A stretch of 64,000 nucleotides of DNA. Origin: an uncultured Candidatus Saccharibacteria bacterium (GTDB lineage Bacteria; Patescibacteriota; Minisyncoccia; Phycocordibacterales; JAACPR01). The stretch spans positions 344-64,343 of the forward strand of contig CAZDRR010000001.1 of the NCBI GenBank assembly GCA_964507955.1, given 5' to 3'. Below, one piece after another: positions 12,253-52,879 of the stretch (position 1 is the first letter of the stretch; each line of letters starts with the position of its first letter). Below the pieces are notes generated by a model. That model ran no database searches and was not told where the DNA came from. It was given only the letters and a program-made list of their open reading frames with translations. A program made the position numbers and the translations under genes.

Positions 12253-12270
12253 TCTCAATAAACTACGACT

Positions 12271-12870
12271 ATGGCAAATACAATTACAAGAATGCTACCA
12301 TTCCGTCAGTATAATGAACAAGATGTTGTCAACATCTATGCTCTTGATGCTGCTACAGGGCAAGCTGGTTCTCTTGTTAAGGTAAGCAGTGCTGATCTTA
12401 ACGCAGAAACCATCGAACTCGTCAACTATGGCTTTACTAACCAAATGGGCCATGCTTCCTCCCAATATCCACAAAACCCACTAAAGGTTTCGAAAGTTAC
12501 CGCAACGGGTCAAGTAGCTTTGGGTATTCTTCTACGCGACGTTCGCACTGTAGATGAAAATGGTGAAAACCTTCTTTTCTATCCTCAGAAGAAAGACGAA
12601 CTTCAATGCGTTGTTTCTGGCGAAACAGTGCCTATCGCAACTCGCGGTCTGTTCATGTTCAACGTGGCAGGATTAGCGGGTGGTGTGGCACCAGCGATCA
12701 ACTCTTACGCTATTCCTGTGGGCGATGGCCTATTGACAGGCGTTGCTTCTCCAAGCGCAACCCAACTCCAATATTCTGTTGGCAAGTGGATTGCTACTGG
12801 TAGCCGTGCTTCCGTCTCCGATACGGACGCTTTCGAAGGTGCATATGCTCTGTTAAAACTTGAACTCTAA
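12271..12870 (+). CDS. hypothetical head protein (decoration/auxiliary capsid protein?)
   Basis: 199 aa; elevated GC and C-ending codon bias like the capsid gene; directly upstream of MCP. Confidence 0.3.
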   Translation: MANTITRMLPFRQYNEQDVVNIYALDAATGQAGSLVKVSSADLNAETIELVNYGFTNQMGHASSQYPQNPLKVSKVTATGQVALGILLRDVRTVDENGENLLFYPQKKDELQCVVSGETVPIATRGLFMFNVAGLAGGVAPAINSYAIPVGDGLLTGVASPSATQLQYSVGKWIATGSRASVSDTDAFEGAYALLKLEL

Positions 12871-12884
12871 TACCTTATAACTAG

Positions 12885-27300: not shown

Positions 27301-27558
27301 GTTGAAAAAATTAAAAAGAGCCAAAACGAATTGGCTTCAAAATTACAAGAAACAACAATCGAAGTCGAAAAATTCCGCACTCTTATGAAAGATACTGGAA
27401 TTCCAGACTCTATTGATAGCCTAAGCAAATCTGTATTTGAAGCATCTGAGAATCTTAAAGATTTTAACTCTTTTACAAAAAGTTTATCAAACCTATCTCT
27501 TTCTGTAACTTCTCGTTTAGATGAATTAACTCAAAGAGTCAATAAATTAAGCTCTTAA
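21337..27558 (+). CDS. tail tape measure protein
   Basis: 2073 aa; long alpha-helical Ala/Gln/Leu-rich protein; hydrophobic Gly-rich segment (GLSAAIGGATVGIFAITAAAAG); five GFIPN[FY] repeats. Confidence 0.85.
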   Translation: MPQGQGSFNVSANLVLNPQSLVQASRQAKQALGRITGQASEFQKSLDASTARVFAFGATTSVLTGVASAFKALVASTISVEKRLVEINSILNASASDFADFRNTIFSVAKSTGQSFDIVADAAAELARQGLSAAETAKRLEAALILTRVSGLDSVKSVNALTAAINGYTSAGLTAEQITNKLVAVDTNFAVSAKDLAEALSRAGSTAEDAGVSFDELLGIVTAVQQTTSRGGAVIGNALKSIFTRLGRGKTIDSLQALGVAIDASQSGVQKLQALASALSQISDPTQANAIKELAGGVYQINLVSAALKDLQSQSSIFSQATAISSKATNEALIKNEQLNQSIAAQINTLVAGVTNLAEKIGQLTFAPVLKSLLSLTNKFVGWLDTALDPEKGNKFIQALFKTIGSFLGGPAIVLVTAAFLKIFTLVARYAKEGFKTVLNIGTQTERIKNLEAGIKTFLDKNAKLHELISNSTLTEAQKHQLILDVIKQENRELAKQQQLLTSLANFAYSKGVRGFNEDLSAYGKGGKKISAAGFIPNFANGQMLENIGAQQHGYKAGKARQIRIHDGNGKSFNSFVNDREKIFNFTNSKGNRATIVRPPNGFGAGTQVAGMASGFIPNFANFEGWSRAALDAVLNGLRKSPRELQAKLSGARTTPAELQAIQFLLKAMGSGTFNKNEIKQEVEALIRKPREVAKEFVTPQSLNQGDSLRLILGKIGAKSIDDLAKYKNAGLDSYNLSSLGGSSKVYRSVLDSYFSRNAQARFENQAKEEKNRLENFIDEYTVSANSIGGIGLISPRFGGQGRTFAKMPLYGINSLYKLKGADGTPFLGKKDEKAIFNKKSTMTISDITTSGVPSGQDVVDISKNINEFFAGPLVNLADSMYGQLFDVSNRSEFQNDLAKFKATSAGGILSPSAEGAIFESASKIALSSMKEMKSIFDPTDTNRPFDFSNSAALKKILGINVLKGEAKRLGEKQITGQTNGLVIKAFNDPDYSPKLIKQMYEQYLSSPNRVLEKTKKAASGFIPNFVGKSSLIGEGFFGKFHKLNDTLGVKRFKKNRYKNPDALSEAIAEEFAISKILAEEPLVSGVDAPDVVDTLQRALQAKSVRKKIISDPVAIKAIGGHESNQLGDVISNLLDNAGMQAEDLHGNNFTVNQAAEEYIRKNDDWLTLKSSFERTYAGNKNYLQDIAQAGGKINILDAGYMRPMTEHLFNLYKKYSTLPASQAAGFIPNYSKALKDAVKREISAGVDPSKVYIDQHSSLRSSRNPSGLMVANTIDEPKGGIQGINRARKEGRNPKMYGAAKGFIPNYAKKRYGKKENKISDTSQITTPLLPQIKENALIALPKEINDMIRNAHNFNVASLEASKDLQKLNKELSPEKTPFSKKISKLKEKTSLFTEAYSESSLKRDQGQGFLGKIQSHTGKIQGSLLSLSLGANMLGDSMPELSDTITKATTALSILDLSSGLFGPLVSGIKGLSAAIGGATVGIFAITAAAAGVSAYLFNKETSRLVDAQEKNIAGIEEETRVRAQKLTLSRTAKEAGVTDLTGLYRQTRGTKIGNQINSLQDQLKQAYKANDYDKIEEVRQKLLEAFREAAKETNIYNIQLKELKDSSLLLADTFIAQSDKISTAIGKIVSKLENQALANKVASNVPLRDEAKYGDRLSNLLKIQSNKNQALQANAGFLQSFFQKAKFDEAGKLTSGGIFDLIKQRLETDQAFGLTSPTGYNKQQDISNQITSGKFLKDSFKSFMEGGTDALKSKLEEAIGPIKDNEAGQQFLDSVKEAALNFRDQTIEAYQSVKNTQLEIINKLIDSISELKNAQNESLRTLPSKVSEIKSGESVDPLFLFKKFQEAAKLLNSSDLSTRAQGTNILGSISGGTDIFKKLFGDKALTSLQVSAGLKPSDVSKAVGSATMDRTNFAMIKNSIKEMFGGNEFFRASQALDKAKQDPTKINDLINIIKSSLTTRNAEKGKALINTLTSISQASFENEEVEKIKKSQNELASKLQETTIEVEKFRTLMKDTGIPDSIDSLSKSVFEASENLKDFNSFTKSLSNLSLSVTSRLDELTQRVNKLSS

Positions 27559-35302: not shown

Positions 35303-36060
35303 TTCAATTCGGACAACATCTTTGTTAAAATTCTACATTCTTTTGTTGGAATGTCTTTAAACGATTTCCATTGAGAGCAATCATCATTACGATATTTATT
35401 CTCTTTCCAAAGAGTTCTCAACCATTGGATAAATTGATCGAAATTTAAATTCTTTTCTTCTGCTGTTTTTTCAAGAAGCGCCCAAGGTTTTAAAATAACA
35501 TTTTCTTCTTCCGTTTGAGAACTTTCTGATCCAGAAGAACGCATGATTTCATCTGCCCCGACAATATGGATATTTAAAAAATTGCGCACGGCACGGACAA
35601 AAGCCCTATTACAAGCCATGGTTTCTAAAAATTTTTGACCAAAATCATCTGTATTTTTTACAGATGCATTTGCGCAATCCGAAAATTTTACAACATAAGG
35701 TGTTTCATAATTCGGAATCCATGTAATTGTGCAGGTAGCTATAGCATTTTCTGTATTACCAGAAATATTATATGAGACTTCGGAAAATCCCCTTAATTTA
35801 GCTAACTCTTTAATACCCCCGAGCATTATTAATAATTGTTTGTCTTTTAAGCCTTCAATAGAAGAAGGAATTGGCTTTTGTCTGTTTTCAAACCATTCCT
35901 TATTCACATAAAGGAATTCTGGTTTGATCATTTCTCTCCAATTAATTGATCCATCTTCATTAAAGACGTATGCAACATTAGGATAAAGTCCTGTAGAAGT
36001 ATTACGAGAATATTTTTGAACAGCTTGCTCTACAAGCGTTGCGGGGATTTCTTCACTCAT
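35299..36060 (-). CDS. hypothetical protein
   Basis: 253 aa; terminal gene of minus-strand operon; start overlaps the stop of the upstream gene (CATCAT at 36053..36060). Confidence 0.4.
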   Translation of the reverse strand: MSEEIPATLVEQAVQKYSRNTSTGLYPNVAYVFNEDGSINWREMIKPEFLYVNKEWFENRQKPIPSSIEGLKDKQLLIMLGGIKELAKLRGFSEVSYNISGNTENAIATCTITWIPNYETPYVVKFSDCANASVKNTDDFGQKFLETMACNRAFVRAVRNFLNIHIVGADEIMRSSGSESSQTEEENVILKPWALLEKTAEEKNLNFDQFIQWLRTLWKENKYRNDDCSQWKSFKDIPTKECRILTKMLSELN

Positions 36061-37186
36061 GATTGTTACTATAAATATACATCCAGTCTAAGTCAAGTAA
36101 AAACAAGTCCATAGACTTGTAAACTGCGAATATATTTGGATAAACGTCCGCGCCACAAACAATTTTTTTATTAGATATAATCGAAATATCTTCGTAAGAA
36201 GCGTTATTGATTTTTTGTCGATTGTCTTCTATCGTTTTTTCAACATTAAAATTAATAATGGCGTTATTGAAAAACTTAGCTCTTTCGTTTTTTAAATTTT
36301 CCTCGTTTGTGCAAATTAAATTAACTGGAATACCAAGTAATTTTAAATCTTCCACAAATTTCTTATCGAAAGATCCTGAAACATAATTGACACATAGAAG
36401 ATTTTTAACGAAAGGAAAGTTTAAGTTAAATGGTTGCGCCGTAGTTACTTCTCCAGTATTGCGCGAAAGAATATCTACCATTATTTTATGAGTTTCCATA
36501 TCACAAAATAAATCAAGTCTAATATTGACATTTTTTAAAACTAATGGACAGGGTAAAGATGGAATAATATCTATACATTTATCTTTATATCTCAAACCAG
36601 CATAAATCGTTTTAAATGGAATGTTATTGTTAAATCCAAGCATCTCAAGAATAGTTTGAGCAATAATTTCGGGATTTATTTTGTTGATTTTTTTAGGGAA
36701 TTCATTTAATATAAAAGATGGATTTTCATCTTTTTCGCGAGGAGTTTCGATAAGAAATTGTTTCTTTTTATCTCCCCAATATGGTGCCGAACAATTCGCA
36801 AAAGATTCCCCGAAAATAGCCGTAATTGGTTTGTTATAAACACTCGCAATTTGTGCTGCCAAAGAATCTACTCCAACAAATGCCATGCTGTTCTTAATGA
36901 CATTTGATGTTTGTCTAAAATTTAACTTGCCTCTTAAATCCAAATCACATTGCACGGATGGGTCTTTTAGAGAACCAATTTGAACAACCTTTATATTTTC
37001 ACGTTGCAAAAATGGCAAACAGAGATTCAAAACTAAATTCCAATGGTCATAATCTCTTAAATTGTTTTTTTTAGAAGCGTAAAAACAAATATATTTATCA
37101 AAAACTATAGGATAGTAATGTTCCAAAATTTCTATGGAAGAAATTGGAACGCCTGTCGATAATGCATATCTCTCAATTAAATGCAT
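36053..37186 (-). CDS. GT9 (heptosyltransferase-like) C-terminal domain protein with about 230-aa extension
   Basis: N-terminal 150 aa carry GT9 C-domain motifs (YASKKNNLRDYDHW ~ GASxxxKRWP; GVDSLAAQIASVYNKPITAIFG ~ GNDSGPMHLAAALGxPxVALFG); no GT9 N-domain present in this ORF. Confidence 0.55.
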   Translation of the reverse strand: MHLIERYALSTGVPISSIEILEHYYPIVFDKYICFYASKKNNLRDYDHWNLVLNLCLPFLQRENIKVVQIGSLKDPSVQCDLDLRGKLNFRQTSNVIKNSMAFVGVDSLAAQIASVYNKPITAIFGESFANCSAPYWGDKKKQFLIETPREKDENPSFILNEFPKKINKINPEIIAQTILEMLGFNNNIPFKTIYAGLRYKDKCIDIIPSLPCPLVLKNVNIRLDLFCDMETHKIMVDILSRNTGEVTTAQPFNLNFPFVKNLLCVNYVSGSFDKKFVEDLKLLGIPVNLICTNEENLKNERAKFFNNAIINFNVEKTIEDNRQKINNASYEDISIISNKKIVCGADVYPNIFAVYKSMDLFLLDLDWMYIYSNNHE

Positions 37187-37190
37187 GTTC

Positions 37191-38897
37191 TTATTCTTTA
37201 ATGTTCAAAGTAATGATATCGTTGCCATGATGCAAGTAATCCAAATGTTTTTGAGTCCCAATATGAGGCAGAAAACAAATTTCGAAATATCCTTTATGAG
37301 ATCCTTGTCCTTCCATCATGAATAAATTTTCCATATGAGGATGAAAATCAAGCACTTTATAGATGAACCTATTGCCTAAAAGAATTTCTTTGAATTGGGG
37401 CTTTGTAGCGAAATAAATGTCTTTATCTGGATAAGCCTTTTTGATTGATGGCAGCAAAGCTGTAGATAAAAAGACATCTTCTTCGGATTCTGGCATCACG
37501 AACAAAATACGATCTTTCCTTTCTTTATCTAAAAATGAATCAAAAGGAATCACTTTTAATTCTTCGGAAGGCTTGGCATTTTTGAAACTTATTATGGGTT
37601 GCTTTACTGTTTCGAGAATTTTTCCTTTTAGATTCTCAACAATTTTCTCAACGCTAAATTCTGCTTCTATCCATTTCTTGCCATTATCAACTAATTCTTG
37701 TTTTCTCTCTTGATCCAATCCATAAACATACAACAATGTATTACATATCGAATTAGCGTCGGTAGAAGCTTTGATGAATTGGGATTGGGGTTCTCTATAT
37801 TCATGCCATTTTAAAGGAAGTCCCCCTTGATGCTCATAGCACGAATCTGTGCCACAAGAGTATTCTGTAACCAATGTAATTAAGCCTGCGGCTTTAGCTT
37901 CTTGAATTGGTAATTCTTGCCCTCCAGAAGTAAATGGATGACAATATACGTCCATACAATTATAAACTTCATTTAATTGTTCCTCGGTTAATCCAGCAAT
38001 CGCTGTTTTTGTTTTAAAGGTTTTGGCCGAATTGCAGAATGGGCAATTAATTTCCGCACCTTCAAAATTTTTAATAGAATATCGTCCGCAAGAACTACAA
38101 CGATAAGTTGCTAAAACATCATGCGGACTAATCTTCTTTTCTTTTAAATATCGAACGATATCCCAGCCAGCTTGATTATCTCCCCAATCCGTATGCAAAA
38201 TTAGTTTAGCTTCTGGAACTATTTGTTTGAATAATTTAAATCCATCTAGGAGATTTGGAACAGATTTTCTCAATTGATTTTTGAAAACAAAACCTATGAC
38301 AAAATTTTTATCAAGGCCGTGTCTTTGGCGAATTTCGCGTCTATTTTCAAGAGGTTTAAAATGATTTAAATCAATAGCCCCATGTATTGTTGAAATATTA
38401 TGAATGCCAAATTTTTTCATTTCCTGTGTGGCGAAATCAGCCCAAACAAGAAATTTGTCGCAAGACTTCGCCATAATCATAGATTCTTCCATCAATGGAA
38501 GGCTGTCTAACGTTGTCCAAATGATTTTATGGGTAGTGTTCCACCAAGGCTTTGCAACGAAGCCAGAGAAGGCCCAAATGTCTTCAATGCCTACGTAAAC
38601 ATCTGGTTTTACAATATCAATAATCTTGTCTATTTCGTAATAGCCATATGATGCAGCGCGGTTTTTAAACGGATCGTTTGCAATTGAAGCCAATACTTCT
38701 GGATTCTCTGTCATAGTTCCATAACAAGGCCAAGGAGTCTTAACATCCCTACCAAATGGAACGCCATTCGCTGCTTCATAAACCTCAATATCTGGATCAT
38801 TATGCAATGCGAGAAGAACATTCTTCATGTTCTTCCCGAATCCAGTAACCATTCTACTGTAATTAGAATGAAAAAGAACTTTGATTTTCTTGTTCAT
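37191..38897 (-). CDS. GT4-type glycosyltransferase with inserted zinc ribbon and C-terminal GT9 N-domain-like module
   Basis: GT-B C-domain E-x7-E region GGQELPIQEAKAAGLITL; inserted CSSCGRYS...CPFCNS; C-terminal 150 aa (ILFVMPESEEDVFLSTALLPSIKKAYPDKDIYF...) resemble the N-terminal domain of WaaC/WaaF-type GT9 enzymes. Confidence 0.6.
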   Translation of the reverse strand: MNKKIKVLFHSNYSRMVTGFGKNMKNVLLALHNDPDIEVYEAANGVPFGRDVKTPWPCYGTMTENPEVLASIANDPFKNRAASYGYYEIDKIIDIVKPDVYVGIEDIWAFSGFVAKPWWNTTHKIIWTTLDSLPLMEESMIMAKSCDKFLVWADFATQEMKKFGIHNISTIHGAIDLNHFKPLENRREIRQRHGLDKNFVIGFVFKNQLRKSVPNLLDGFKLFKQIVPEAKLILHTDWGDNQAGWDIVRYLKEKKISPHDVLATYRCSSCGRYSIKNFEGAEINCPFCNSAKTFKTKTAIAGLTEEQLNEVYNCMDVYCHPFTSGGQELPIQEAKAAGLITLVTEYSCGTDSCYEHQGGLPLKWHEYREPQSQFIKASTDANSICNTLLYVYGLDQERKQELVDNGKKWIEAEFSVEKIVENLKGKILETVKQPIISFKNAKPSEELKVIPFDSFLDKERKDRILFVMPESEEDVFLSTALLPSIKKAYPDKDIYFATKPQFKEILLGNRFIYKVLDFHPHMENLFMMEGQGSHKGYFEICFLPHIGTQKHLDYLHHGNDIITLNIKE

Positions 38898-41116: not shown

Positions 41117-41490
41117 AATTCAATAATTGCAGATTTTGTCTCAATTTTCTTTGGCGTATCTTTTAAGTGCTTTTTACCCTTATTTTTCTTCTTATAATCG
41201 TCAAAGAATTTACGTTTAACAGGATCTTCTCCAGTTGCAGATGCCCGTTTTTCAGAAAGTTCGGCAGATAAATCCATCATATCTCCAACAGTTCCTTTTT
41301 TGGAACCTGTTTTATTTACGAAATCTTTTGCAGAATGAGGATCAATAGTTGTATCTATTGAGGCATTTGGAATAGTAAAAATTCTTTTCCACGCAATACC
41401 ATCTTGGTAATACTCATGTTTGTCATTCATGCCTTGGAGAATTTCTTTGATTTCTCCAGTTTCTTCATTCTGGTAAAGGTAAAGTGGCAT
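41113..41490 (-). CDS. hypothetical basic protein
   Basis: 125 aa; Lys-rich C-terminus. Confidence 0.4.
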   Translation of the reverse strand: MPLYLYQNEETGEIKEILQGMNDKHEYYQDGIAWKRIFTIPNASIDTTIDPHSAKDFVNKTGSKKGTVGDMMDLSAELSEKRASATGEDPVKRKFFDDYKKKNKGKKHLKDTPKKIETKSAIIEF

Positions 41491-42569
41491 TATAGCATCT
41501 TTGTTAAAATTTGATCAACTGTATTTTTATAAGTAAATTGTTTCCCCATTATCAATCCGTTTGTATTGACGGTTTTGGCTTTTAATACCGCTCTTTCCAT
41601 ACCATCAATCAAAGAATCTTCGCTAAGAAGAAAGTAATTGCCCTGATTAAAAGGAAGACCTTTTCTGAAAAAGAAATTATCGTAGCACGGTTGTTCTCCG
41701 ACAGGCTCAACAAGAATTGAATTATCTTCTGTAGCCCAATCTTTATGAGAAGAACAATTAGAAACTACCGACCATTTTCCTAAAGCCGTCGTATTAAATG
41801 CCCCCATATTCCAACCCTCTCCATTCGAAAAACCAGATAAATCAATATCTATAGCGTTCATCAATTCAAGAACTTCGGAATTTGTATCGAGCGATGGAAG
41901 AAAATTGATATTTGTCCACTCTTTATCCCCAAGGGTTTCTTGTAAAATTTGTTTGTATTGTTCTGGAGTAAAAAAGGGATTATTGACAAGGCAAGTTAAT
42001 AAATATTTTGGGTCGTTGCCATATTTTTTCAACCAAGTTTGGATAATTTGTCGAGTATTTTTCCTGCGTTCAAATTTTCCAATTAATCCAAAATGTATAA
42101 CGTCATCGTTAAACTTTTTATCAATTACATGAAAGTCTTCGTCAAATCCTAAAGGAACATGGGAAACATTATCGCAGCCAGCATTTTTAAAGATATTTGC
42201 GGCAATGGAACTTGAAAAGAAAACATGTTCTTGACTTTTCACTAAAGCGATTTCTTCTTGGGTTGGAGAAGAAACTTCGTAATATGTATAAAGAAATTGT
42301 TTTGGAGCAATTCTGTTTTCAGAACCATTGATATGCCAATTTTTAAGAACAGGATACTTTTTGTCCAACGTTTTGAATCTATTCTGTCCAGATTCCTTAA
42401 TCCAATCAATGAATTCTTTTGGAGCTTTGTCGAAGGCTTGGAAATTAGCCTGATCGCCTACGGGGAAAAGGGAAACTTCGGCATTTCTTTTCCAAAGTTC
42501 CTTTAAAAAATTCATTGATACATTCCCTAAACTCAAGGAATTGATGGGGCCATTAAAGTGAAGTTTCAT
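41490..42569 (-). CDS. GT-B glycosyltransferase (GT1/GT4-like)
   Basis: HFGLIGKFERRKN and SGFSNGEGWNMGAFNTTALGKWSVVSN resemble GT-B C-domain sugar-donor binding motifs. Confidence 0.55.
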   Translation of the reverse strand: MKLHFNGPINSLSLGNVSMNFLKELWKRNAEVSLFPVGDQANFQAFDKAPKEFIDWIKESGQNRFKTLDKKYPVLKNWHINGSENRIAPKQFLYTYYEVSSPTQEEIALVKSQEHVFFSSSIAANIFKNAGCDNVSHVPLGFDEDFHVIDKKFNDDVIHFGLIGKFERRKNTRQIIQTWLKKYGNDPKYLLTCLVNNPFFTPEQYKQILQETLGDKEWTNINFLPSLDTNSEVLELMNAIDIDLSGFSNGEGWNMGAFNTTALGKWSVVSNCSSHKDWATEDNSILVEPVGEQPCYDNFFFRKGLPFNQGNYFLLSEDSLIDGMERAVLKAKTVNTNGLIMGKQFTYKNTVDQILTKML

Positions 42570-44251: not shown

Positions 44252-44295
44252 TGCCTTATAGTAAATTTTGTGTTCGAAATGTCAAGAACTTTTTA

Positions 44296-44333
44296 CGATT
44301 ACAAAAAAAGTTGCCCGATTACAAAAAAAGTTG
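44296..44333. repeat. two tandem 18-bp direct repeats cgattacaaaaaaagttg (2-bp spacer)
   Basis: Exact copies at 44296-44313 and 44316-44333 in the dut/RNR divergent intergenic region. Confidence 0.8.
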
Positions 44334-44513
44334 TTGAATTCCTTTTTTTCGTGCCTATATATTTAAGTGGGTTCTGATGGATCAAACTTAATCTTACGAT
44401 AACCAAATTTAACTATAACTTCGTTTAGTTTAAATATAGTTACGTTAAAGTTATTTAATTACTCACTACGTTCGTAATTAAATGGGAAATTTGGGTTCCG
44501 AGCAAAAAAGTTC

Positions 44514-44541
44514 TTGACAAGAAAAATTTCCTTGTTATAAT
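44514..44541 (+). promoter_or_regulatory. consensus sigma-70-type promoter TTGACA-16-TATAAT directed toward the RNR gene
   Basis: TTGACA at 44514-44519 and TATAAT at 44536-44541; about 290 nt upstream of the RNR start. Confidence 0.55.
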
Positions 44542-44630
44542 TAAAAAGTCCAAGCTAGTTGCGACAAAGTTTCGCACTTGATCAATTCCGATTATTGGGC
44601 TAAGGTTACGACAAAATTAAAACGCCCAAT

Positions 44631-44658
44631 GGGACTCACAAGTTCGTCCCCCTTTTTT
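44631..44658 (+). promoter_or_regulatory. terminator-like hairpin within the RNR 5' leader (possible attenuator/riboswitch expression platform)
   Basis: gggac-tcacaagttc-gtccc followed by cctttttt then aaaaaa; lies between the promoter and the start codon. Confidence 0.4.
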
Positions 44659-44835
44659 AAAAAATTATTTCTAAGACTCTGTGCTAACGTCAAAGTTCCG
44701 ACTTCTTCTTCGAAGAAAAGCTAGTGAAATCTCGCAAGCTCGATTTCATATTATACATCGCGTTTATGAAAAATTTTTGGCAAAAATGTGTTGCCAATTT
44801 TGGATATCGCGTTAGAATGTGTAAGATAAGAGACT

Positions 44836-46839
44836 ATGATTGACGTGCGCGATTTACGACAAAATGAGGTTAGAGAGTATCATGAAAAATATTGCATTTC
44901 CGAACTACTTCCAGAAGATTTTTTAAACAAATACAAGAATAAACAGCCTAATTGGGGCTTTAATGGGTTGGGCTATATTGTTTACAAAAGGACTTACGCT
45001 AGAGAAATTGTCAAGGGATTGACGGAGGAATGGTGGGAAACAGTTGCTCGTTGCGTTAACGGTGCGCAAAAAATTGGTGCGAAATATTCTGTTGAAGAAG
45101 CCCAAAGATTATATGATCTAGTCTTCAATTTAAAATGTAATTTTGCAGGACGAATGCTTTGGCAGTTGAATACGTCAACTGTTGAAAGATTCGGACTTGC
45201 CAGTTTGCTCAATTGCTGGTATTGCGCGATGAGGGACATTGATGACTTTTGTTTTGTATTTGAACATTTGATGTTAGGTGGGGGAGTGGGTTTTTCGGTC
45301 AAAAGGGAAGACGTTCATGAACTGCCTAGAGTTAAAAAAGGAGTAAGGATTACTCATGAAAAAACCAAAGATGCTGATTTTATTGTCCCTGATTCTCGAC
45401 AAGGATGGGTTGAATTGTTAAGAAAAACCATGCAATCATTTTTTGTCACGGGTAAATCTTTTTCATATTCAACAATTCTTGTGCGTGGCGCTGGAGAAAA
45501 AATTGCTGGATTCGGCGGCACTGCGAGCGGCCCACAAATCTTGATAGACGGAATCCAACAAATCGCGAATATTATCGCGAAAAGAGAAGGTAAAAAATTG
45601 CGTTCAATAGACGTTTTAGATATTAACAATATTATTGGCGATATTGTTGTGGCGGGCAATGTCAGGAGAAGTGCGGAAATTGCAATTGGAGATGCGGATG
45701 ATTATTTATATTTAAGGGCTAAAAATTGGAGTAATGGCAATATTCCAAACTGGAGGAGTAAATCGAACAATAGTATTGAAGCAGATTCATTTGAACACAT
45801 CAGCGATGAACTTTGGGAAAATGGTTATGTTCTTGATCCAAAGACAGGATTAGCAAAAGGCGAAGCTTACGGCTTCATCAATTTACAACTTTGTAAACAA
45901 TATGGGCGCTTAGGGGAAGAAAGAAAGGAAAACTGCGAAGGAGTTAATCCATGTGCGGAAATCACTCTTGCGGATGGGGAAGCATGTAATTTGGCAGAAC
46001 TTTATTTAAACAATATTGATTCTAAAGAAGAATTAATTGAATGTGCGAAACTACTTTATAAAACCCAAAAAGCGGTTTGGAATCTACCAGCACTTTACGA
46101 GAAAACAGAAAAAATTGTTTCCAAGAACAGGCGTATTGGGCTTGGAGTAACAGGTGTATGCCAATCTCTTGATAAACTTGATTGGTTGGACGAATGTTAC
46201 GTTACTCTTAGAGAATATGATAAAGAATGGAGTGCGCAAAATGGACTTCCAGAGAGCATCAAATTAACAACAGTTAAGCCAAGCGGCACCCTTTCCTTAT
46301 TGGCTGGATCAACAGCAGGAGGACATGCGGGCTATTCTCGTTGGATGATCAGAAGAGTAAGAATGGCTTCAACAGACCCTCTTATCAAGTTGTGCAGAGA
46401 AGCTGGATATAAAACCGAATACCTGTTACGCTTTGATGGAACAGAAGATTATTCTACAACTGTTGTAGAATTTCCTTGTGAGTTTTCTCCAGAAACCGTA
46501 TTGGCGAAAGATTTATCGGCTGTGGACCAAATGAATTTGGTGAAAAAGTTACAGACAATTTGGGCTGACAATTCCGTATCGGTGACGATTTATTATCAAC
46601 CAGAAGAATTGGATTCCATCAAAGATTGGATGAAGGAAAATTATAAAAATAGCACGAAAACACTAAGCTTTTTAATGCATAACAAACACGGATTTAAACA
46701 AGCTCCATTAGAAGAAATTTCCGAAGAAACATATCGCAAGATGATTAAAAAAGTTAAACCAATTGAACAAATTTTTGATATTGGTTCTACTCTCATTGAA
46801 GGTTTGGAATGCGAAGGAGGAGCATGTCCATTGAGGTAA
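44836..46839 (+). CDS. ribonucleotide reductase, class II-like (B12-dependent type), monomeric size
   Basis: 667 aa; active-site VNPCAEITL...EACNLAELYLNN matching RNR NPC[GA]E...CNL.S motifs; C-terminal CEGGAC redox pair; no NrdB-like partner in window. Confidence 0.6.
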   Translation: MIDVRDLRQNEVREYHEKYCISELLPEDFLNKYKNKQPNWGFNGLGYIVYKRTYAREIVKGLTEEWWETVARCVNGAQKIGAKYSVEEAQRLYDLVFNLKCNFAGRMLWQLNTSTVERFGLASLLNCWYCAMRDIDDFCFVFEHLMLGGGVGFSVKREDVHELPRVKKGVRITHEKTKDADFIVPDSRQGWVELLRKTMQSFFVTGKSFSYSTILVRGAGEKIAGFGGTASGPQILIDGIQQIANIIAKREGKKLRSIDVLDINNIIGDIVVAGNVRRSAEIAIGDADDYLYLRAKNWSNGNIPNWRSKSNNSIEADSFEHISDELWENGYVLDPKTGLAKGEAYGFINLQLCKQYGRLGEERKENCEGVNPCAEITLADGEACNLAELYLNNIDSKEELIECAKLLYKTQKAVWNLPALYEKTEKIVSKNRRIGLGVTGVCQSLDKLDWLDECYVTLREYDKEWSAQNGLPESIKLTTVKPSGTLSLLAGSTAGGHAGYSRWMIRRVRMASTDPLIKLCREAGYKTEYLLRFDGTEDYSTTVVEFPCEFSPETVLAKDLSAVDQMNLVKKLQTIWADNSVSVTIYYQPEELDSIKDWMKENYKNSTKTLSFLMHNKHGFKQAPLEEISEETYRKMIKKVKPIEQIFDIGSTLIEGLECEGGACPLR

Positions 46840-46997
46840 CAAAGTGTATCTGTCACAATATCTCTTTTCAGGAGATTCTCAAAAAGAATAAACCCCTTCC
46901 TCTTTTACAGGAGGCGGGGGTTTGTGCTAATAAATGTAAATTATGCGTTCCCTTTTTGGAAAAAATAATTTTGAAAAAAGAAGAGAAAAATGAATAA
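46824..46997 (+). CDS. small Bfd-like [2Fe-2S]-binding domain protein (putative)
   Basis: 57 aa from in-frame ATG 46824; CICH...CANKCKLC gives the C-x-C...C-x2-C pattern of BFD-like domains; overlaps the RNR 3' end. Confidence 0.35.
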   Translation: MSIEVTKCICHNISFQEILKKNKPLPLLQEAGVCANKCKLCVPFLEKIILKKEEKNE

Positions 46998-47003
46998 TCT
47001 GAT

Positions 47004-47852
47004 GTGGACGTATTATTCATTTCAGATTTTAATTTAGAACATAACTCTGGCGGTGCGCAGGTAAGCAATGACGCTATTATTCGTGCAGGACGAGAACGAG
47101 GATTGTCTATTACAGAATTTAATCATGATACAAGTTCTTTAAAATTAATGTATCGGTATGATTTGTTGATTAGTTCCAATTTGGAAGTTTTGAGTCATCG
47201 TTCTGATTATATATTTGATAGGATTATTAATCACCCAAACCATATACGATTAGAACACGATTCCTGTAGTTATCTGCCTGCGGATAAACGTCGTAAACTG
47301 TTTTCTTCGACAAAGAAAAATTTCTTTTTATCGCAGTTTCATCTGGATTTCTTTAAAGAAGCATATGGTGATTATTTCGAGAATGTAGAAATAAACTTTG
47401 ATCCTATTGATACTAAAATTTTTTATCCAAGTTCCAATAAAAAGCGAAAGTATGATATTGTTTATTGCGGATTCTTGCATGAGCTAAAAGGAGCATATAA
47501 TCTCATTCATACTGCGGTTTTCAATCCCCAAAGGAAATTTGATGTTTTTGGATGGAGCGACAATGAGAGATTGATAAAGGAGTTGCAACAATATCCAAAT
47601 ATAGAATTACATCAACCCGTCCCTTTAAATGAAGTCGGAGAGATTTATAGAAATGCAAAATTTATTTTCCATGATCCAGTTGTTAACGAACCATTTTGTA
47701 GAATGGTTGGTGAGGCACTGATTTGTGGTTGCGAATTGATGGGCAACGGAGATAAAATTGGCAGTTATCAGGAATTTTACAAATTAGGGAGTGACGAATT
47801 CCGCGCACAAACAGAGAAAGCACAACACACGTTTTGGGATAAAATTTTATGA
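47004..47852 (+). CDS. GT-B glycosyltransferase (GT4-like)
   Basis: C-domain EPFCRMVGEALICGCELMGNGD matches the GT4 E-x7-E donor-binding region; GTG start per track. Confidence 0.6.
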   Translation: MDVLFISDFNLEHNSGGAQVSNDAIIRAGRERGLSITEFNHDTSSLKLMYRYDLLISSNLEVLSHRSDYIFDRIINHPNHIRLEHDSCSYLPADKRRKLFSSTKKNFFLSQFHLDFFKEAYGDYFENVEINFDPIDTKIFYPSSNKKRKYDIVYCGFLHELKGAYNLIHTAVFNPQRKFDVFGWSDNERLIKELQQYPNIELHQPVPLNEVGEIYRNAKFIFHDPVVNEPFCRMVGEALICGCELMGNGDKIGSYQEFYKLGSDEFRAQTEKAQHTFWDKIL

Positions 47853-48580
47853 AATCAGTTTCCGCAATTATTAATTGTTTTCAACGCCCACACGCTTTAA
47901 GAAGTCAATTTGAAGCGATAGAATCTCAATCTATCAAGCCGAAAGAGATTATGATTTGGCAAAATGCCCCAATGAATGGAGCGCAATTTGATTATTCTTT
48001 TTTAAATAAATCAATTATTAGCTTAAATAATTATAATTATGGAGTATGGGCTCGATTCGCATTTGCTTTAAATTCTCATTCTGATTATATTTGTATATTT
48101 GATGACGATACTATTCCAAACGAAAATTGGTTTGAAAATTGTTTAGAACAAATTGAACAAAATGGGAATGGTCTTTATGGAACTATTGGAGTAACATTTA
48201 ACGATTTAGATTATCGTTCTTATATTCGTCATGGTTGGGCGAATCCAAATAATAAGGTTGAGCAAGTAGATATTGTAGGACATTCTTGGTTCTTCCATAG
48301 AGATTTATTATCTGCATTTTGGAGAGAAACAGATTTGCCACTTTCCTATTTGTGTGGTGAAGACATGCATTTTTCATATTCAATTCAGAAATATCTTGGA
48401 TTAAATACTTTTGTGCCTCCTCATCCGATAGAAGATTTGTCTTTATGGGGTAGCCGACCCCAATCAGCGATGGAATTAGGCGTTGATAATAATGCTATTT
48501 CTGTGAATTTTCATTCACAAATTTTTGGAGAATCTTTAAAGCATTATCATAAAAAAGGCTTTAAATTATTAAATTTATGA
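47849..48580 (+). CDS. GT-A fold glycosyltransferase (GT2-like)
   Basis: N-terminal Rossmann-like SAIINCFQRP, DxD-type motif FDDDTI; 243 aa. Confidence 0.6.
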   Translation: MKSVSAIINCFQRPHALRSQFEAIESQSIKPKEIMIWQNAPMNGAQFDYSFLNKSIISLNNYNYGVWARFAFALNSHSDYICIFDDDTIPNENWFENCLEQIEQNGNGLYGTIGVTFNDLDYRSYIRHGWANPNNKVEQVDIVGHSWFFHRDLLSAFWRETDLPLSYLCGEDMHFSYSIQKYLGLNTFVPPHPIEDLSLWGSRPQSAMELGVDNNAISVNFHSQIFGESLKHYHKKGFKLLNL

Positions 48581-49584
48581 AAAAAATACTTGTAATATAT
48601 GGGACTCGCCCAGAATATTTAAAAGTTAAAAATTTCTTGAAAAAAAATGACGTTTTTGACATAAAAAGTTTACATATTAAACAACACTCTAATATCATTA
48701 ATTTTGGCGATCCCGATTATTTAATAGAAATTGAAAATAAAAATATAGATAGGTTAAACAATATTTTTAGTGAAATTTTTTTAAAATTACCAGAAATTAT
48801 TAAAGACTTTGATTATATTGTTATTCAGGGAGATACGGCATCTGTTATGGCTTCTGCTGTTTGCGCTTTTAATTTGAAGAAAAAAATTATTTATATTGAA
48901 TCAGGATTAAGAACTTGGGATTTGGATAATCCTTTTCCAGAAGAGGGATATAGACAAATGGTTGCGCGTATTTCATATATAAATTTTTGTCCGACAGAAC
49001 GTTCTAATTTAAATTTAATTAAAGAAAATATTAACCAAAATTGTTTTGCTGTAGGCAATACGTCTTTAGATAATTTATTGAATTTAAAAGAAAAATGCTC
49101 TTATCAGGACAAGGTTTTAATTACTTTACATAGAAATGAAAATTTAAATATTTTATCAGAATGGTTGTCCATAATAGATCAATTTGCAAGAGAACATCCA
49201 GAATTAATGTTTATTTTTCCAGCGCATTTAAATCCTATTGTGCAAACAGCGGCGTCTAAAACAAAATATTTAAAAATAATTAAACCTTTAGAACACGAAG
49301 ATCTTTTAGATATTTTAAAAGATGCAAAATTCGTTATTACTGATTCTGGAGGAATCCAAGAAGAGGCTTGTTTTTTAAATAAAAAAATTATTGTATGTCG
49401 TAAAACAACAGAACGTCCAGAAGGCATTTCGACTGGACATATAAAAATTGCAGAAGATCCTTCTAAATTGAAAAATCTATTAGAAGAAGTAAATACGAAT
49501 TTTATAATAGATGGATCATGCCCATATGGAGACGGGCAATCTACCCAGCGAATTTTACGAATATTAGCAAATGAAAGACTTTAA
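48577..49584 (+). CDS. UDP-N-acetylglucosamine 2-epimerase family enzyme (WecB/NeuC/CapG-like)
   Basis: Signature motifs GTRPE (N-terminus), VIQGDT, DSGGIQEE, TERPE. Confidence 0.8.
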   Translation: MKKILVIYGTRPEYLKVKNFLKKNDVFDIKSLHIKQHSNIINFGDPDYLIEIENKNIDRLNNIFSEIFLKLPEIIKDFDYIVIQGDTASVMASAVCAFNLKKKIIYIESGLRTWDLDNPFPEEGYRQMVARISYINFCPTERSNLNLIKENINQNCFAVGNTSLDNLLNLKEKCSYQDKVLITLHRNENLNILSEWLSIIDQFAREHPELMFIFPAHLNPIVQTAASKTKYLKIIKPLEHEDLLDILKDAKFVITDSGGIQEEACFLNKKIIVCRKTTERPEGISTGHIKIAEDPSKLKNLLEEVNTNFIIDGSCPYGDGQSTQRILRILANERL

Positions 49585-50263
49585 ACAAGAATTATTAATA
49601 ATGCATGATAGACTTATAAAAGGAGAGTCGTTTGCATTTTCTAAATATGCGGATGGGGAATGGGCCGCGATGTTAAATTTACCTTTAGATAATAGAGAAT
49701 TTAAAAACGAAAATTCTTTCGAAACTTCTCGCAAAGAGTTAATTGAATCTTTTAGATTTAAACACCCAAACTATTTTGTTGGAATTTCTTGTGAGTGTTG
49801 TCAAGGAGAAAACCATTTTCGAATGAAAGAATTTTCAACACAACCTATTGAAAATTTAACTTATGCGAATTTATTTGTTAATAGCAATTATCCGATTTAT
49901 AAACAATTATTTCTTCCAGAATATGAAAAAAGAGATGTTCATTTAGTGTGCAATAAATTATCGAAAATAGAAAATTTACCTTTTGTGCCAGAAGAAACAT
50001 ATTTTGTTGGATATAATGCATGGGTAGAAGACCACGATCTTATTAAAAAAATACAAGATAAGAATTTATCGGATAAATTATTTTTATTTTGTTGCGGGCC
50101 ATTCGGTAATTTATTAGCCCACCAACTATTTTCGTCAAATCAAAAAAATATATATTTAGACATTGGATCAACATTAAATCCGTGGTTACAATCAGAAGGA
50201 TTTAAAAGAGATTATTATTCTAATGGATTCTACGCTGGTCGAAAATGTTTTTGGAGGGAATAA
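49571..50263 (+). CDS. hypothetical protein, possible GT-D/DUF1792-like glycosyltransferase
   Basis: 230 aa; N-terminal FSKYADGEWAAM (DxE-type metal motif); weak. Confidence 0.3.
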   Translation: MKDFKQELLIMHDRLIKGESFAFSKYADGEWAAMLNLPLDNREFKNENSFETSRKELIESFRFKHPNYFVGISCECCQGENHFRMKEFSTQPIENLTYANLFVNSNYPIYKQLFLPEYEKRDVHLVCNKLSKIENLPFVPEETYFVGYNAWVEDHDLIKKIQDKNLSDKLFLFCCGPFGNLLAHQLFSSNQKNIYLDIGSTLNPWLQSEGFKRDYYSNGFYAGRKCFWRE

Positions 50264-50265
50264 CA

Positions 50266-51117
50266 ATGATACAAAAAAATAAACGATACTTAATTACTGG
50301 AGGAACTGGATTTTTGGGAGAGGCTTTAATTGCTCGACTACAAAAATTCGGATGCACAATAAGAATTTTGGCAAGAAATGAGGGAAAGCTAATAGCTTTA
50401 AAACAAAAATATCCAAATTTAGAAATTCATACAGGAGATATTTCAGATCCTTTTGAAGTAAAACAAGCAATGAAGGATGTCGATGGAGTTTTCCATCTAG
50501 CAGCTTCAAAACACGTTGGATTAGCAGAAACATTTGTTAGAGAATGCGTTAAGTCTAATACTATAGGATCATTAAATATATTAGAAAATTCATTGAATCA
50601 AAAATTAGATTTTGTTATCGGAATTTCGACAGATAAAGCCGCCCAAGTAGCAGGGGTTTATGGAGCTTCAAAACTTTTAATGGAGCGTTTATTTAAACAG
50701 TTTGAGGAATTAAATCCTCTTTGTAAATATAGAATTGTTCGATATGGTAACGTTTTATATTCTACAGGTTCGGTTTTGTGTAAATGGAAAGAATTAATTC
50801 AATCAGGACAACCATGTGCAGTTTCAGATTTAAATGCTACTAGATTTTATTGGACAGTAGAACAGGCAATTGAGTTAATTTTTGAATGTTTATCCAAAGC
50901 AGAAAATGCTTCCCCTTTTGTTCCTCAAATGAAGTCTATTAGAATCAAAGATTTATTAGAAGCAATGTATGAAAAATATGGCAATGGATTTCAGTTAAAT
51001 CCAATTGTTTATGGATTACAACAAGGGGAAAATTTACACGAAAGGATTTTGGAGGATGGACCTTATTCCAACGAAGTTCCCTTATATAGCAAGAAAGAAA
51101 TTTTAGAACTGATATGA
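50266..51117 (+). CDS. UDP-GlcNAc 4,6-dehydratase, PseB/CapE/FlaA1-like SDR
   Basis: TGGTGFLG NAD motif; ISTDKAAQVAGVYGASK (YxxxK); RYGNVLYSTGSVLCKWKELIQSGQPCAVSDLNATRF closely parallels PseB RYGNVMASRGSVIPLFIEQIKANQPLTITDPNMTRF; start moved to ATG 50266 with GGAGGG SD. Confidence 0.8.
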   Translation: MIQKNKRYLITGGTGFLGEALIARLQKFGCTIRILARNEGKLIALKQKYPNLEIHTGDISDPFEVKQAMKDVDGVFHLAASKHVGLAETFVRECVKSNTIGSLNILENSLNQKLDFVIGISTDKAAQVAGVYGASKLLMERLFKQFEELNPLCKYRIVRYGNVLYSTGSVLCKWKELIQSGQPCAVSDLNATRFYWTVEQAIELIFECLSKAENASPFVPQMKSIRIKDLLEAMYEKYGNGFQLNPIVYGLQQGENLHERILEDGPYSNEVPLYSKKEILELI

Positions 51118-51788
51118 AAGAACTAACTTTATTAATTGGTAGTTGCGATAACTATGCTTCTTTATGGCCTATTTGCGCAGATTTAATTCAAAAATATTGG
51201 GAGATTGATTGCGATAAAATTATAGTTGCAGAAAATTATTCACAATCATGTCCACAAGAATTTAAGTTAATTAATGCTGGGTGCAGAACTTGGACGGAAA
51301 GAATGTTATATGCATTAGATTCTGTTAAAACTCCGTATGTTTTTTTTATATTAGAAGATTATTTTTTAAGCGAAAGAGTTTCTAAGGAAATGATTGATCA
51401 ATTTTTATTTTTTCTGAAAATTCACGAAGCTAATAAAATAGCTTTAACAACAATTCCAGAAGGATTTTATAAAACATCGAAATTTTATGAAAATTTATAT
51501 GATAATATTTATAAAATGGATGACGATAGCGATTACTTAACAAGTGTTCAACCTGCAATTTGGAAGACTTCTTTTTTAAAAGAATTATTACAACAAGATA
51601 ATTGGAATCCATGGGAATTTGAAATTATTGGTAGCGCAAGGATAAAAGGGAAGGATAATAAAATTTTTATCAAGAAAAAAAATGACCCAATTTATTTTAA
51701 TGCAGTTAGAAAAGGAGGTTATTTTTCAGAAGGTTATTTTGAATTTATAGAGAAAGAATTGAATAAAGAAGTTGACAAGAATCATTGA
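51114..51788 (+). CDS. hypothetical protein in sugar-nucleotide operon
   Basis: 224-aa coupled ORF; no recognisable motif. Confidence 0.4.
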   Translation: MKELTLLIGSCDNYASLWPICADLIQKYWEIDCDKIIVAENYSQSCPQEFKLINAGCRTWTERMLYALDSVKTPYVFFILEDYFLSERVSKEMIDQFLFFLKIHEANKIALTTIPEGFYKTSKFYENLYDNIYKMDDDSDYLTSVQPAIWKTSFLKELLQQDNWNPWEFEIIGSARIKGKDNKIFIKKKNDPIYFNAVRKGGYFSEGYFEFIEKELNKEVDKNH

Positions 51789-52879
51789 ATACGCATAATA
51801 TGAACGCGAATATGAAAAAAGTGCTAATAACAGGAGTCACAGGAATGGACGGGAGCCTTATGGCAGATTATTTATTAAAGCATACAGATAATTTTATTGT
51901 TGGAGGTATTCGTAGATTGAGTGTGCCGAATCATAAAAATATAGAACATCTCATTGGGCATCCTAGATTTAAACTTATTGATTTAGATATTACAGATGCG
52001 ATTAATGTTGCGTTAGTGATTAAAGAAGAACGACCAGATTATTTTATTAATTTTGCGGCGAATTCTTTTGTAGGCAATAGTTGGACGATGCCAGTTAATC
52101 ATTTTACGACGAATTGTTTATCGGTGCTTTATCAATTAGAAGCTATTCGCAAATATGCTCCAAACTGTCATTATTATAATGCAGGCTCTTCTGAGGAGTT
52201 TGGTGATGTTGTAACTGTTCCTCAGTCAGAAAGTCATCCTTTACGCCCACGAAGTCCTTATGGGGCAGCTAAGGCTTCTTCAAGACATCTTGTGAAGGTT
52301 TATAGAGAATCTTATAATCTTTACGCTATTCAGGGTTGGTTATTTAACCACGAAGGAATTCGCAGGGGAGAAGAATTTGTCACCCGCAAAATTACCAAAG
52401 GCGTTGCAAGAATTAAACATGCCATTGAAAATAAACTTCCATTTGAACCTCTTGAACTCGGTAATCTTGATTCAACAAGGGATTGGAGCGATGCAGAAGA
52501 TTTTGTAGATGGTATATGGAAAATGCTCAATCAAGAATTTCCAAAAGAATATGTTCTATCGTCTAATGAGACCCATTCTATTAAAGAATTTGTAGAATTA
52601 GCTTTTTTATCGGCTGGGATTCATGGTGTTTGGGTTGGAGAAAAATTAGATACATTATATCTTCTTCCAAATGCTGACGCGGAATATTGTGAATTTGCAT
52701 CAATTAAATTAGTAAAAATTAATGAAAAATTTTATCGCCCAGCAGAAGTAGAAATTCTTTATGGGGATTCAAGTAAAGCACGGACAGAATTAAATTGGCA
52801 ACCAAAAATTTCTTTTAAAAACCTTGTAAAAAAAATGGTTGAAAACGATATAAAAGAATATGCCAAAACCCATTCGTAA
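51785..52879 (+). CDS. gmd: GDP-mannose 4,6-dehydratase
   Basis: ITGVTGMDGSLMADYLL, SPYGAAK, LFNHEGIRRGEEFVTRKIT, YFRPAEVE and the C-terminus align closely with E. coli Gmd. Confidence 0.92.
   Translation: MNTHNMNANMKKVLITGVTGMDGSLMADYLLKHTDNFIVGGIRRLSVPNHKNIEHLIGHPRFKLIDLDITDAINVALVIKEERPDYFINFAANSFVGNSWTMPVNHFTTNCLSVLYQLEAIRKYAPNCHYYNAGSSEEFGDVVTVPQSESHPLRPRSPYGAAKASSRHLVKVYRESYNLYAIQGWLFNHEGIRRGEEFVTRKITKGVARIKHAIENKLPFEPLELGNLDSTRDWSDAEDFVDGIWKMLNQEFPKEYVLSSNETHSIKEFVELAFLSAGIHGVWVGEKLDTLYLLPNADAEYCEFASIKLVKINEKFYRPAEVEILYGDSSKARTELNWQPKISFKNLVKKMVENDIKEYAKTHS

Follow-up and report, generated by a model that had tools for sequence, protein, structure and literature searches.

A class II ribonucleotide reductase gene overlapped by a mini-gene

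The DNA analysed here (the window) is a 64 000-nucleotide stretch of contig CAZDRR010000001.1, assembled from an uncultured Candidatus Saccharibacteria bacterium, and is part of a large tailed-phage genome. On its forward strand, at positions 44836–46997, a ribonucleotide reductase (RNR) gene is followed by an overlapping open reading frame (ORF) for a cysteine-rich protein of only 57 amino acids, referred to below as the mini-gene and the mini-protein. An earlier note, made from the sequence alone, had described the pair as a class II-like RNR with a BFD-like [2Fe-2S] mini-protein. The features of the locus are as follows.

44836..46839, + strand: monomeric class II (adenosylcobalamin-dependent) RNR, assigned by sequence to the RTPR/NrdJm type, 667 aa (TIGR02505, Pfam, PDB 1L1L, PHROGs)
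46810..46827, + strand: codons of the RNR C-terminal redox pair, CEGGAC (C659…C664), whose bases are reused for the Shine–Dalgarno-like sequence and ATG of the mini-gene
46824..46839, + strand: 16-nt overlap of the RNR 3′ end with the mini-gene 5′ end (translational coupling)
46824..46997, + strand: mini-gene, for a predicted 57-aa BFD-like mini-ferredoxin (ATG at 46824, stop codon at 46995–46997)
46845–46847, 46851–46853, 46935–46937 and 46944–46946, + strand: codons of the predicted [2Fe-2S] ligands C8, C10, C38 and C41, respectively
46923–46925, + strand: codon of the extra cysteine C34, conserved in some subfamilies only

The assignment of the RNR to class II was borne out. TIGR02505, the model for adenosylcobalamin (AdoCbl)-dependent ribonucleoside-triphosphate reductase (RTPR), scored 368.7 bits against a cutoff of 340.05, and the L. 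leichmannii RTPR (PDB 1L1L) aligned over the full length of the protein (E = 1e-93). Further matches were to phrog_367 (E = 7e-128) and to the Pfam families PF17975, PF02867 and PF21995, the last being the B12-RNR insertion domain that mimics the dimer interface (E = 2.6e-9, 37.7 bits versus a cutoff of 27). The active-site signature and C-terminal motif picked out in the earlier note also align with RTPR: N371, C373 and E375 of NPCAE, C384 of EACNL, C127 of LLNCWYC and C659/C664 of CEGGAC correspond to RTPR N406, C408, E410, C419, C119 and C731/C736. C373 would thus be the thiyl-radical cysteine, C127 and C384 the active-site redox pair, and C659/C664 the C-terminal CxxxxC tail. Judged by these similarities, the enzyme is a monomeric class II RNR of the L. 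leichmannii RTPR type, and a class I alpha subunit with nrdB encoded elsewhere is ruled out by the TIGR02505 score and the 1L1L match. The earlier note had seen no small subunit in the window; in agreement with this, a Pfam scan of 34 window ORFs, which are only part of the ORFs and of the genome, gave no match to the small-subunit family PF00268.

The mini-gene begins inside the RNR gene, and the overlap is exactly the 16 nt previously noted. Its ATG is formed from the RNR codons for Ala663 and Cys664 (GCA TGT), and GAAGGAGGAG, coding for E-G-G of the RNR tail, doubles as a Shine–Dalgarno-like sequence 3–4 nt 5′ of this ATG. An alternative in-frame ATG at 46809 would yield 62 aa; the start at 46824 is favoured because homologues begin 2–7 residues ahead of the CxC. 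The protein begins MSIEVTKCICHNISF and has cysteines at positions 8, 10, 34, 38 and 41 (C-x-C…C-x3-C-x2-C). The mini-ORF is a real gene under purifying selection: dN/dS is 0.06–0.19 in close phage pairs, while between the window copy and its relatives the proportion of synonymous differences (pS) is saturated and that of non-synonymous differences (pN) is approximately 0.27–0.31. A chance ORF is ruled out by family conservation and dN/dS, and a frameshifted piece of the RNR C-terminus by the fact that RTPR ends at the same CEGGACP motif. Absence of conservation, synonymous-like drift or a class I alpha enzyme had been named as outcomes that would tell against the original description; what we found instead was a conserved family, selection on its protein sequence and a class II RNR.

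The mini-protein is a divergent member of the BFD-like family

Searches with the mini-protein as a single sequence returned no meaningful match in Pfam, NCBIfam, PHROGs or PDB sequences (hits to DUF5363, E = 0.035, and DCAF16, E = 0.9, were treated as noise), neither a word-indexed homologue search with the 57-aa sequence nor an exact-sequence contig look-up gave anything, and GenBank phages gave no match to the locus or the mini-protein by nucleotide search and tblastn. An exhaustive HMMER search of 1.84 billion representative proteins yielded 18 relatives at E ≤ 1e-3 (51–76 aa, E = 2e-8 to 7e-4), to which a profile search added 53. A degenerate DNA pattern scan over one genome per GTDB species gave 120 loci, of which 97 encode genuine members of the family; a scan with a narrower family alignment gave three loci only. 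In the 65 aligned family sequences (alignment A3), C8, C10, C38 and C41 are invariant and a Pro-Tyr (PY) motif follows C41. Bacterial members and some phage members carry a C-terminal TGETEF motif.

The BFD-like identification holds at the level of the family. PF04324 (Fer2_BFD) is matched by 55 of the 65 A3 members (best E = 3.8e-11) and by 13 of the 20 A1 members, and the family profile aligned with P. aeruginosa Bfd in hhalign (probability 78%, E = 1.9e-5). In both the hmmsearch and hhalign alignments, C8, C10, C38 and C41 fall residue for residue on the Bfd ligand cysteines C4, C6, C38 and C41. The AlphaFold2 model of the mini-protein (pLDDT 80.9) predicts a helix-turn-helix fold that may be that of Bfd (TM 0.65–0.66), and the top three Foldseek matches in the PDB were all P. 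aeruginosa Bfd (4E6K, 6E6R; TM 0.57–0.66, rmsd 2.1–2.7 Å), the E-values being weak (0.18–0.41) because the domain is tiny. Both proteins fall in the range of approximately 55–75 aa. They differ in that identity to Bfd is only 13–16%, the window copy fails the Pfam model, and the family has the PY motif after the last cysteine, an extra cysteine in many members and the TGETEF ending in some. By homology, we conclude that the mini-protein is a divergent member of the BFD-like family, with a single predicted [2Fe-2S] cluster coordinated by C8, C10, C38 and C41.

The five-cysteine pattern originally reported stands for those four positions, but not for the fifth. Phage, Phycisphaerales, Gemmatimonadales and most dCTP-deaminase-linked subfamilies retain C34, those linked to TonB receptors have V, S or F in its place, and canonical Bfd lacks it. 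C34 is not a ligand by homology, and its loss from the TonB-receptor-linked proteins rules it out as a fifth universal ligand.

Kinship with Bfd raises the canonical role of that protein, the mobilization of iron from bacterioferritin. The domain family and ligand pattern are held in common, and some homologues are annotated 'bacterioferritin-associated ferredoxin'; however, no bacterioferritin was recognized among the recurrent neighbour clusters of 97 bacterial and approximately 22 phage loci, the window ORFs scanned with Pfam include no Bfr-like family, and the identity to Bfd is low. The neighbours are instead class II RNRs, cobalamin adenosyltransferases and B12-riboswitch operons. We regard the canonical role as very improbable, and because no bacterioferritin was recognized nearby the mini-protein is not a Bfd in the functional sense. 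Many proteins carrying the 'bacterioferritin-associated ferredoxin' label are probably unrelated to bacterioferritin.

The mini-gene accompanies class II reductases of four lineages in phages

The mini-gene is found in approximately 22 distinct phage loci, and a class II RNR gene lies just upstream in all but one of them (L085). These RNR-linked copies include those of the window, L072, L084, L065, L073/L209, L078, L079, L081, L082/L083, L086/L087, L211, L066/L067, L088 and L080. The earlier note had left open whether the mini-ORF is conserved, cysteines included, downstream of RNRs in related phages, and these loci answer that it is. The two genes overlap by 1, 4, 16 or approximately 30 nt, or are separated by short gaps. 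The 21 RNR neighbours are all class II, with no class I or III enzyme encountered beside any family member. These RNRs fall into four lineages, of which three are RTPR-like and mutually 22–26% identical while one is dimeric:

Window-type: the window enzyme, L072 (59% identical) and L084 (75% identical)
L065-type: 26% identical to the window enzyme, inteins frequent
L066-type: 22% identical to the window enzyme
L080: dimeric, T. maritima NrdJ-like (1XJE, E = 4e-61)

The L065-type and L066-type enzymes matched 1L1L alone in the PDB.

One pair of phages records an exchange of RNR genes around the mini-gene. L082 (IMGVR_UViG_3300032281_000616) and L084 (3300032312_000796) are approximately 90–100% identical in both flanks and have RNRs of different lineages, L065-type in L082 and window-type in L084, a clean cassette replacement. 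The mini-gene was kept in both (89% identical), and the downstream breakpoint, where similarity resumes, lies inside it, near locus position 5057. Retention of the mini-gene through this swap implies a partnership that is independent of lineage-specific, co-evolved RNR surfaces.

The phage loci have some further features. ORFs resembling homing endonucleases (LAGLIDADG-like, HNH-like and a 344–350-aa repeat-Cys type) sit exactly at the junction of the RNR and mini-gene in L073 (4939–5985) and L209, L078 (4198–4992), L079 (3958–4992) and L080 (3943–4995), and inteins split the RNRs of L065, L073 and L081. A conserved protein of approximately 95–106 aa (…GG.CPFQLEAQTEDGR.IYLRYRGG…), without a Pfam match, is encoded shortly downstream of the RNR/mini-gene/adenosyltransferase module on three otherwise different phage contigs (L065 8406–8726, L072 1269–1550 and L080 5799–6092).

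Such pairing suggests a direct role at the RNR as an alternative. The mini-protein could pass reducing equivalents to the C-terminal cysteine pair or the active-site disulfide, replacing or feeding thioredoxin, or could act in trans as an analogue of the Cys-rich domain of dimeric NrdJ. Overlap and translational coupling of the two genes, in the window as in most of the phage loci, speak for this reading, the Cys-rich domain is never present in monomeric NrdJ (PMC5704485), and a ferredoxin-dependent route to a class III RNR is among the references of PMC5704485 (Wei et al. 2015). There is also no thioredoxin- or glutaredoxin-like CxxC ORF in the window or near the RNR of the mini-gene-bearing loci, but RNRs without the mini-gene are no different in this respect (such a gene lies near 1 of 64), so that the absence is uninformative as an argument for a thioredoxin substitute. 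On chemical grounds, a [2Fe-2S] cluster carries one electron and reduction of a disulfide would need an additional enzyme of the ferredoxin–thioredoxin reductase type, none of which was seen nearby. Class I RNRs share the logic of a C-terminal cysteine pair and thioredoxin, yet none is found beside a mini-gene; this restriction to class II disfavours a thioredoxin-like role at the C-terminal pair. Finally, the bacterial B12-uptake and adenosyltransferase operons described below contain the mini-gene and have no RNR within 4–5 kb. We consider a direct RNR partner unlikely, although not so unlikely as to be set aside.

The family is linked to cobalamin in phages and bacteria

Two phage loci connect the module to the RNR cofactor. 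In L065 the order is RNR, mini-gene and a PduO-type ATP:cob(I)alamin adenosyltransferase (ATR; PF01923, E = 9e-39), and in L080 it is NrdJ, endonuclease, mini-gene and PduO. L230 and L231 have no mini-gene; there, a PduO-type ATR gene (L231 6216–6803) comes immediately after a class II RNR gene that contains an intein, a third form of the RNR/B12 module in phages. Scanning for additional PduO adenosyltransferases in phages gave none beyond the two that were known.

In bacteria the link recurs without an RNR. Two Bacteroidota loci (L074 and L075) have a cobalamin riboswitch (113–116 bits) followed by a TonB-dependent receptor, a CobA/BtuR ATR (PF02572, E = 4e-46), the mini-gene and a DUF5074 protein; CobA also adjoins the mini-gene in L093, L101 and L148, and PduO in L126. 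The TonB receptors of the riboswitch operons are BtuB-like. Of the 58 bacterial loci scanned with Rfam, 20 have the cobalamin riboswitch RF00174 (34–118 bits) upstream of the mini-gene and in its orientation; most misses are loci whose upstream sequence ends early. The positive loci belong to Bacteroidota, Ignavibacteria, Rhodothermales and Phycisphaerales. Among the scanned loci with sufficient sequence upstream, all of the TonB-receptor type and six of the eight from Phycisphaerales are positive. RF00174 was not found in the scanned samples of Gemmatimonadales (four loci), Zetaproteobacteria, Zixibacteria and Chthonomonadales. The 97 bacterial loci sampled divide by context as follows.

TonB-receptor operons (Rhodothermales, Bacteroidota, Ignavibacteria), approximately 17 loci: receptor, then DUF5074, CobA or PduO, then mini-gene
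Phycisphaerales, 13–14 loci: DUF1559 protein, then mini-gene
Balneolaceae, approximately 17 loci: 400-aa dCTP deaminase, mini-gene, RsmE
Gemmatimonadales, approximately 13 loci: short-chain dehydrogenase/reductase (SDR), mini-gene, histidine kinase
Other, the remainder: miscellaneous contexts

Six Phycisphaerales loci (L108, L095, L104, L149, L142 and L179) have a riboswitch followed by a dockerin-repeat-like protein, a DUF1559/prepilin-type protein and the mini-ferredoxin; such operons may represent an undescribed B12-related system in Planctomycetota.

These contexts would also suit another form of cobalamin handling. The mini-protein could help to decyanate or dealkylate imported corrinoids reductively, could escort cobalamin with Cys34 binding the cobalt, or could reduce cob(II)alamin in place on the RNR. 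Most riboswitch operons pair the mini-gene with a TonB receptor and a DUF5074 or DUF1559 protein rather than with an ATR, and C34 is retained in the phage, Phycisphaerales, Gemmatimonadales and most dCTP-deaminase-linked proteins. However, the TonB-receptor-linked subfamilies, in which C34 is V, S or F, are those most clearly under B12 regulation, the 57-aa helix-turn-helix fold has no obvious corrin pocket, and homology to CblC/CblD-type proteins was not detected. Activities of this kind are possible, but in our judgement rather improbable.

A proposed role on the cobalamin side of the reductase

Class II RNRs of four lineages, two unrelated ATR families and riboswitches in several phyla are three independent kinds of neighbour that have AdoCbl in common, which argues for a helper that acts on the cobalamin side. 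With moderate confidence, and on the strength of sequence and gene context, we propose that the mini-protein is a B12-linked mini-ferredoxin whose electrons are used to reduce and adenosylate cobalamin. Adenosyltransferases act on cob(I)alamin and so need a one-electron donor; a Bfd-type [2Fe-2S] protein is a plausible one. Under this proposal, the mini-ferredoxin would be co-translated with the monomeric AdoCbl-dependent RNR, be reduced by a host ferredoxin/flavodoxin-NADP+ reductase, and act on the cobalamin side of the RNR rather than on the reduction of its thiols. Imported or damaged cobalamin would thereby be turned, or turned back, into AdoCbl, and the phage RNR would have its cofactor while deoxynucleoside triphosphate (dNTP) synthesis surges. 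Both the electron acceptor and the upstream reductase in this scheme are ones that we infer. The earlier note had offered an alternative reductant in place of thioredoxin, a regulator or a metal-delivery partner. The ties of the family to PduO, CobA, riboswitch operons without an RNR and class II enzymes alone among RNRs point to the cofactor side instead, but the tight RNR coupling, together with the precedent of ferredoxin-dependent electron delivery to a class III RNR, keeps one part of that framing, a direct partner, alive.

Several observations weigh against the cobalamin-side proposal. No ATR was found in the 64-kb window with local CobA and PduO hidden Markov models, and it is for this reason that we suggest the phage would use the ATR of its host. 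The coupling is to the RNR rather than to an ATR, which could equally mean a direct RNR partner. Nor is the pairing universal among RNRs: in the subclade at least 69% identical to the L082 enzyme the mini-gene is present in 14 of 16 loci, while it is present in none of the 39 loci with RNRs beyond that subclade, and the 64 viral loci whose RNRs are 60–64% identical to the window enzyme have no mini-ORF downstream or within ±4 kb. The pairing is therefore clade-specific and dispensable, not obligatory. PF04324 gave no match to the window mini-protein itself even at E ≤ 10, so the profile search suggested at the outset was negative for this copy, and the four cysteines may bind Zn instead of an Fe-S cluster. 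A visible link to B12 is found in only about one-third of the 97 bacterial homologues that were sampled; about one-fifth have a dCTP deaminase upstream, no RF00174 was found in the dCTP-deaminase loci scanned (L068 and L076), and the dCTP-deaminase and SDR contexts lower confidence in a single function across the family.

The Balneolaceae-type arrangement is compact. In L068, L071, L076, L090, L102, L103, L106, L118, L122, L134, L138, L155, L161, L168, L188, L190, L193 and L197 the dCTP deaminase and mini-gene overlap or are separated by 0–21 nt, with an RsmE-like methyltransferase on the other side. It suggests an alternative without any B12 link, in which the mini-protein is a general small ferredoxin, or a sensor of redox state or iron, for dNTP metabolism, tuning the RNR in phages and the dCTP deaminase in Balneolaceae by iron or oxygen status. 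The close deaminase–mini-gene pairs number 15–17, one dCTP-deaminase-linked member (P0002) is 59% identical to the window mini-protein, and other family members lie in unrelated contexts (SDR/histidine kinase, AI-2E transporter). Such a role would leave unexplained the 20 riboswitch-controlled loci, the adjacency to ATRs and the restriction to class II among RNRs, and the mini-protein has no DNA-binding or regulatory domain. We think it improbable.

Comparison with known systems

Small redox proteins encoded with an RNR have precedents. YfaE, the [2Fe-2S] ferredoxin of the E. coli nrdAB operon, and NrdI, the flavodoxin-like activase of class Ib/Ie, service the radical-generating cofactor rather than the substrate chemistry, which parallels the role proposed for the mini-protein; in the case of YfaE this is the cofactor of class I RNR. 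Their folds are different (plant-type ferredoxin and flavodoxin), as is their target, the metal site of the class I beta subunit. NrdI is typically found in the same operon as its RNR (PMC8463856).

The electron-transfer job itself, one-electron reduction of cob(II)alamin for an ATR, is that of PduS with PduO and of FldA/Fpr with CobA, the flavodoxin FldA being an established partner of CobA in cobalamin reduction. Neither PduS, a large flavoprotein that contains [4Fe-4S] clusters, nor FldA is similar to the mini-protein in sequence or fold. The PduS/PduO system is also a precedent for the genes of an ATR and an Fe-S corrin reductase lying with those of a B12 enzyme (PMC2982820). CbiW is a thioredoxin-like ferredoxin, and its fold is a different one.

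Small Cys-rich modules tied to class II RNRs are known from the dimeric enzymes, where a zinc-finger Cys-rich domain (CRD) mediates re-reduction by thioredoxin (PMC5704485) and IscU-like C-terminal domains hint at an Fe-S connection (PMC9669993). Those modules are fused to the RNR, have other cysteine patterns, bind Zn or mostly lack the ligand cysteines, and are absent from monomeric NrdJ, whereas the mini-protein is the product of a separate, Bfd-homologous gene that is also found without any RNR. Monomeric NrdJ has been described as needing thioredoxin alone, via its C-terminal cysteine pair (PMC5704485), and class II RNRs as 'not known to utilize Fe-S clusters' (PMC9669993). A search of the open-access literature, which excludes most subscription papers, found no description of a mini-ferredoxin paired with a class II RNR or of a BFD-like protein paired with cobalamin metabolism, and within that literature no such helper has been described for class II RNRs.

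Setting of the locus in the window

The phage character of the window is apparent from a T4-type large terminase gene (6682–8577), a 2073-aa ORF of tape-measure size (21337–27558) and genes for RecA-like, DnaB, primase and Pol III alpha proteins. Its GC content is approximately 35%, and it contains no tRNA genes and no match to any Rfam family, the cobalamin riboswitch included. Two features lie upstream of the RNR gene.

44252–44835: divergent intergenic region of 584 nt between the dUTPase gene (− strand) and the RNR gene (+ strand), holding the promoter-like site
44514..44541, + strand: sigma-70-type promoter-like site (TTGACA-16-TATAAT, 12/12 consensus, with TG extension)

Evidence for the promoter-like site is limited to its agreement with the consensus, and the region has no more such sites overall than shuffled sequence has. 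A palindromic, terminator-like hairpin lies at 44777–44797, shortly ahead of the RNR start, and no terminator-like site was found between the RNR gene, the mini-gene and the glycosyltransferase gene that follows.

Directly 3′ of the mini-gene begins a sugar/polysaccharide gene cluster (47004–52879), and further such genes lie at 36053–38897 and at 41490–42569 (− strand). Cluster members include GT1-like and GT2 glycosyltransferases, UDP-GlcNAc 2-epimerase, Polysacc_synt_2 (CapD/PseB-like), GDP-mannose 4,6-dehydratase and more glycosyltransferase-like ORFs. Elsewhere in the window, positions 12001–14000 form a GC-rich island (0.448 versus approximately 0.35), coinciding with a 378-aa ORF without a Pfam match (12885–14021, + strand), opposite which runs an antisense ORF of nearly the same length (12867–13940, − strand).

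Implications for class II reductases and B12 metabolism

Class II RNRs are regarded as self-sufficient, needing only the protein, AdoCbl and thioredoxin. The recurrence of the mini-gene across four RNR lineages, together with its links to ATRs and riboswitches, suggests that supply or repair of AdoCbl is a limiting step for which these genomes make genetic provision. More tentatively, and with somewhat less confidence than we attach to the role of the mini-protein itself, the family may be both a missing accessory of class II RNRs that keeps AdoCbl charged and a widespread, overlooked physiological cobalamin reductase of B12-salvage operons in Bacteroidota, Rhodothermota and Planctomycetota, from which phages borrowed it. 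If so, the mini-ferredoxin would be the class II counterpart of YfaE and NrdI in class I and of NrdG in class III, and phages would have secured their dNTP synthesis by borrowing a B12-salvage gene. As a redox protein of 57 residues, it would be easy to test in vitro. Confirmation would put a name to the physiological electron donor for cobalamin adenosylation in several phyla, and would add a B12-maintenance module to the auxiliary metabolism of phages.

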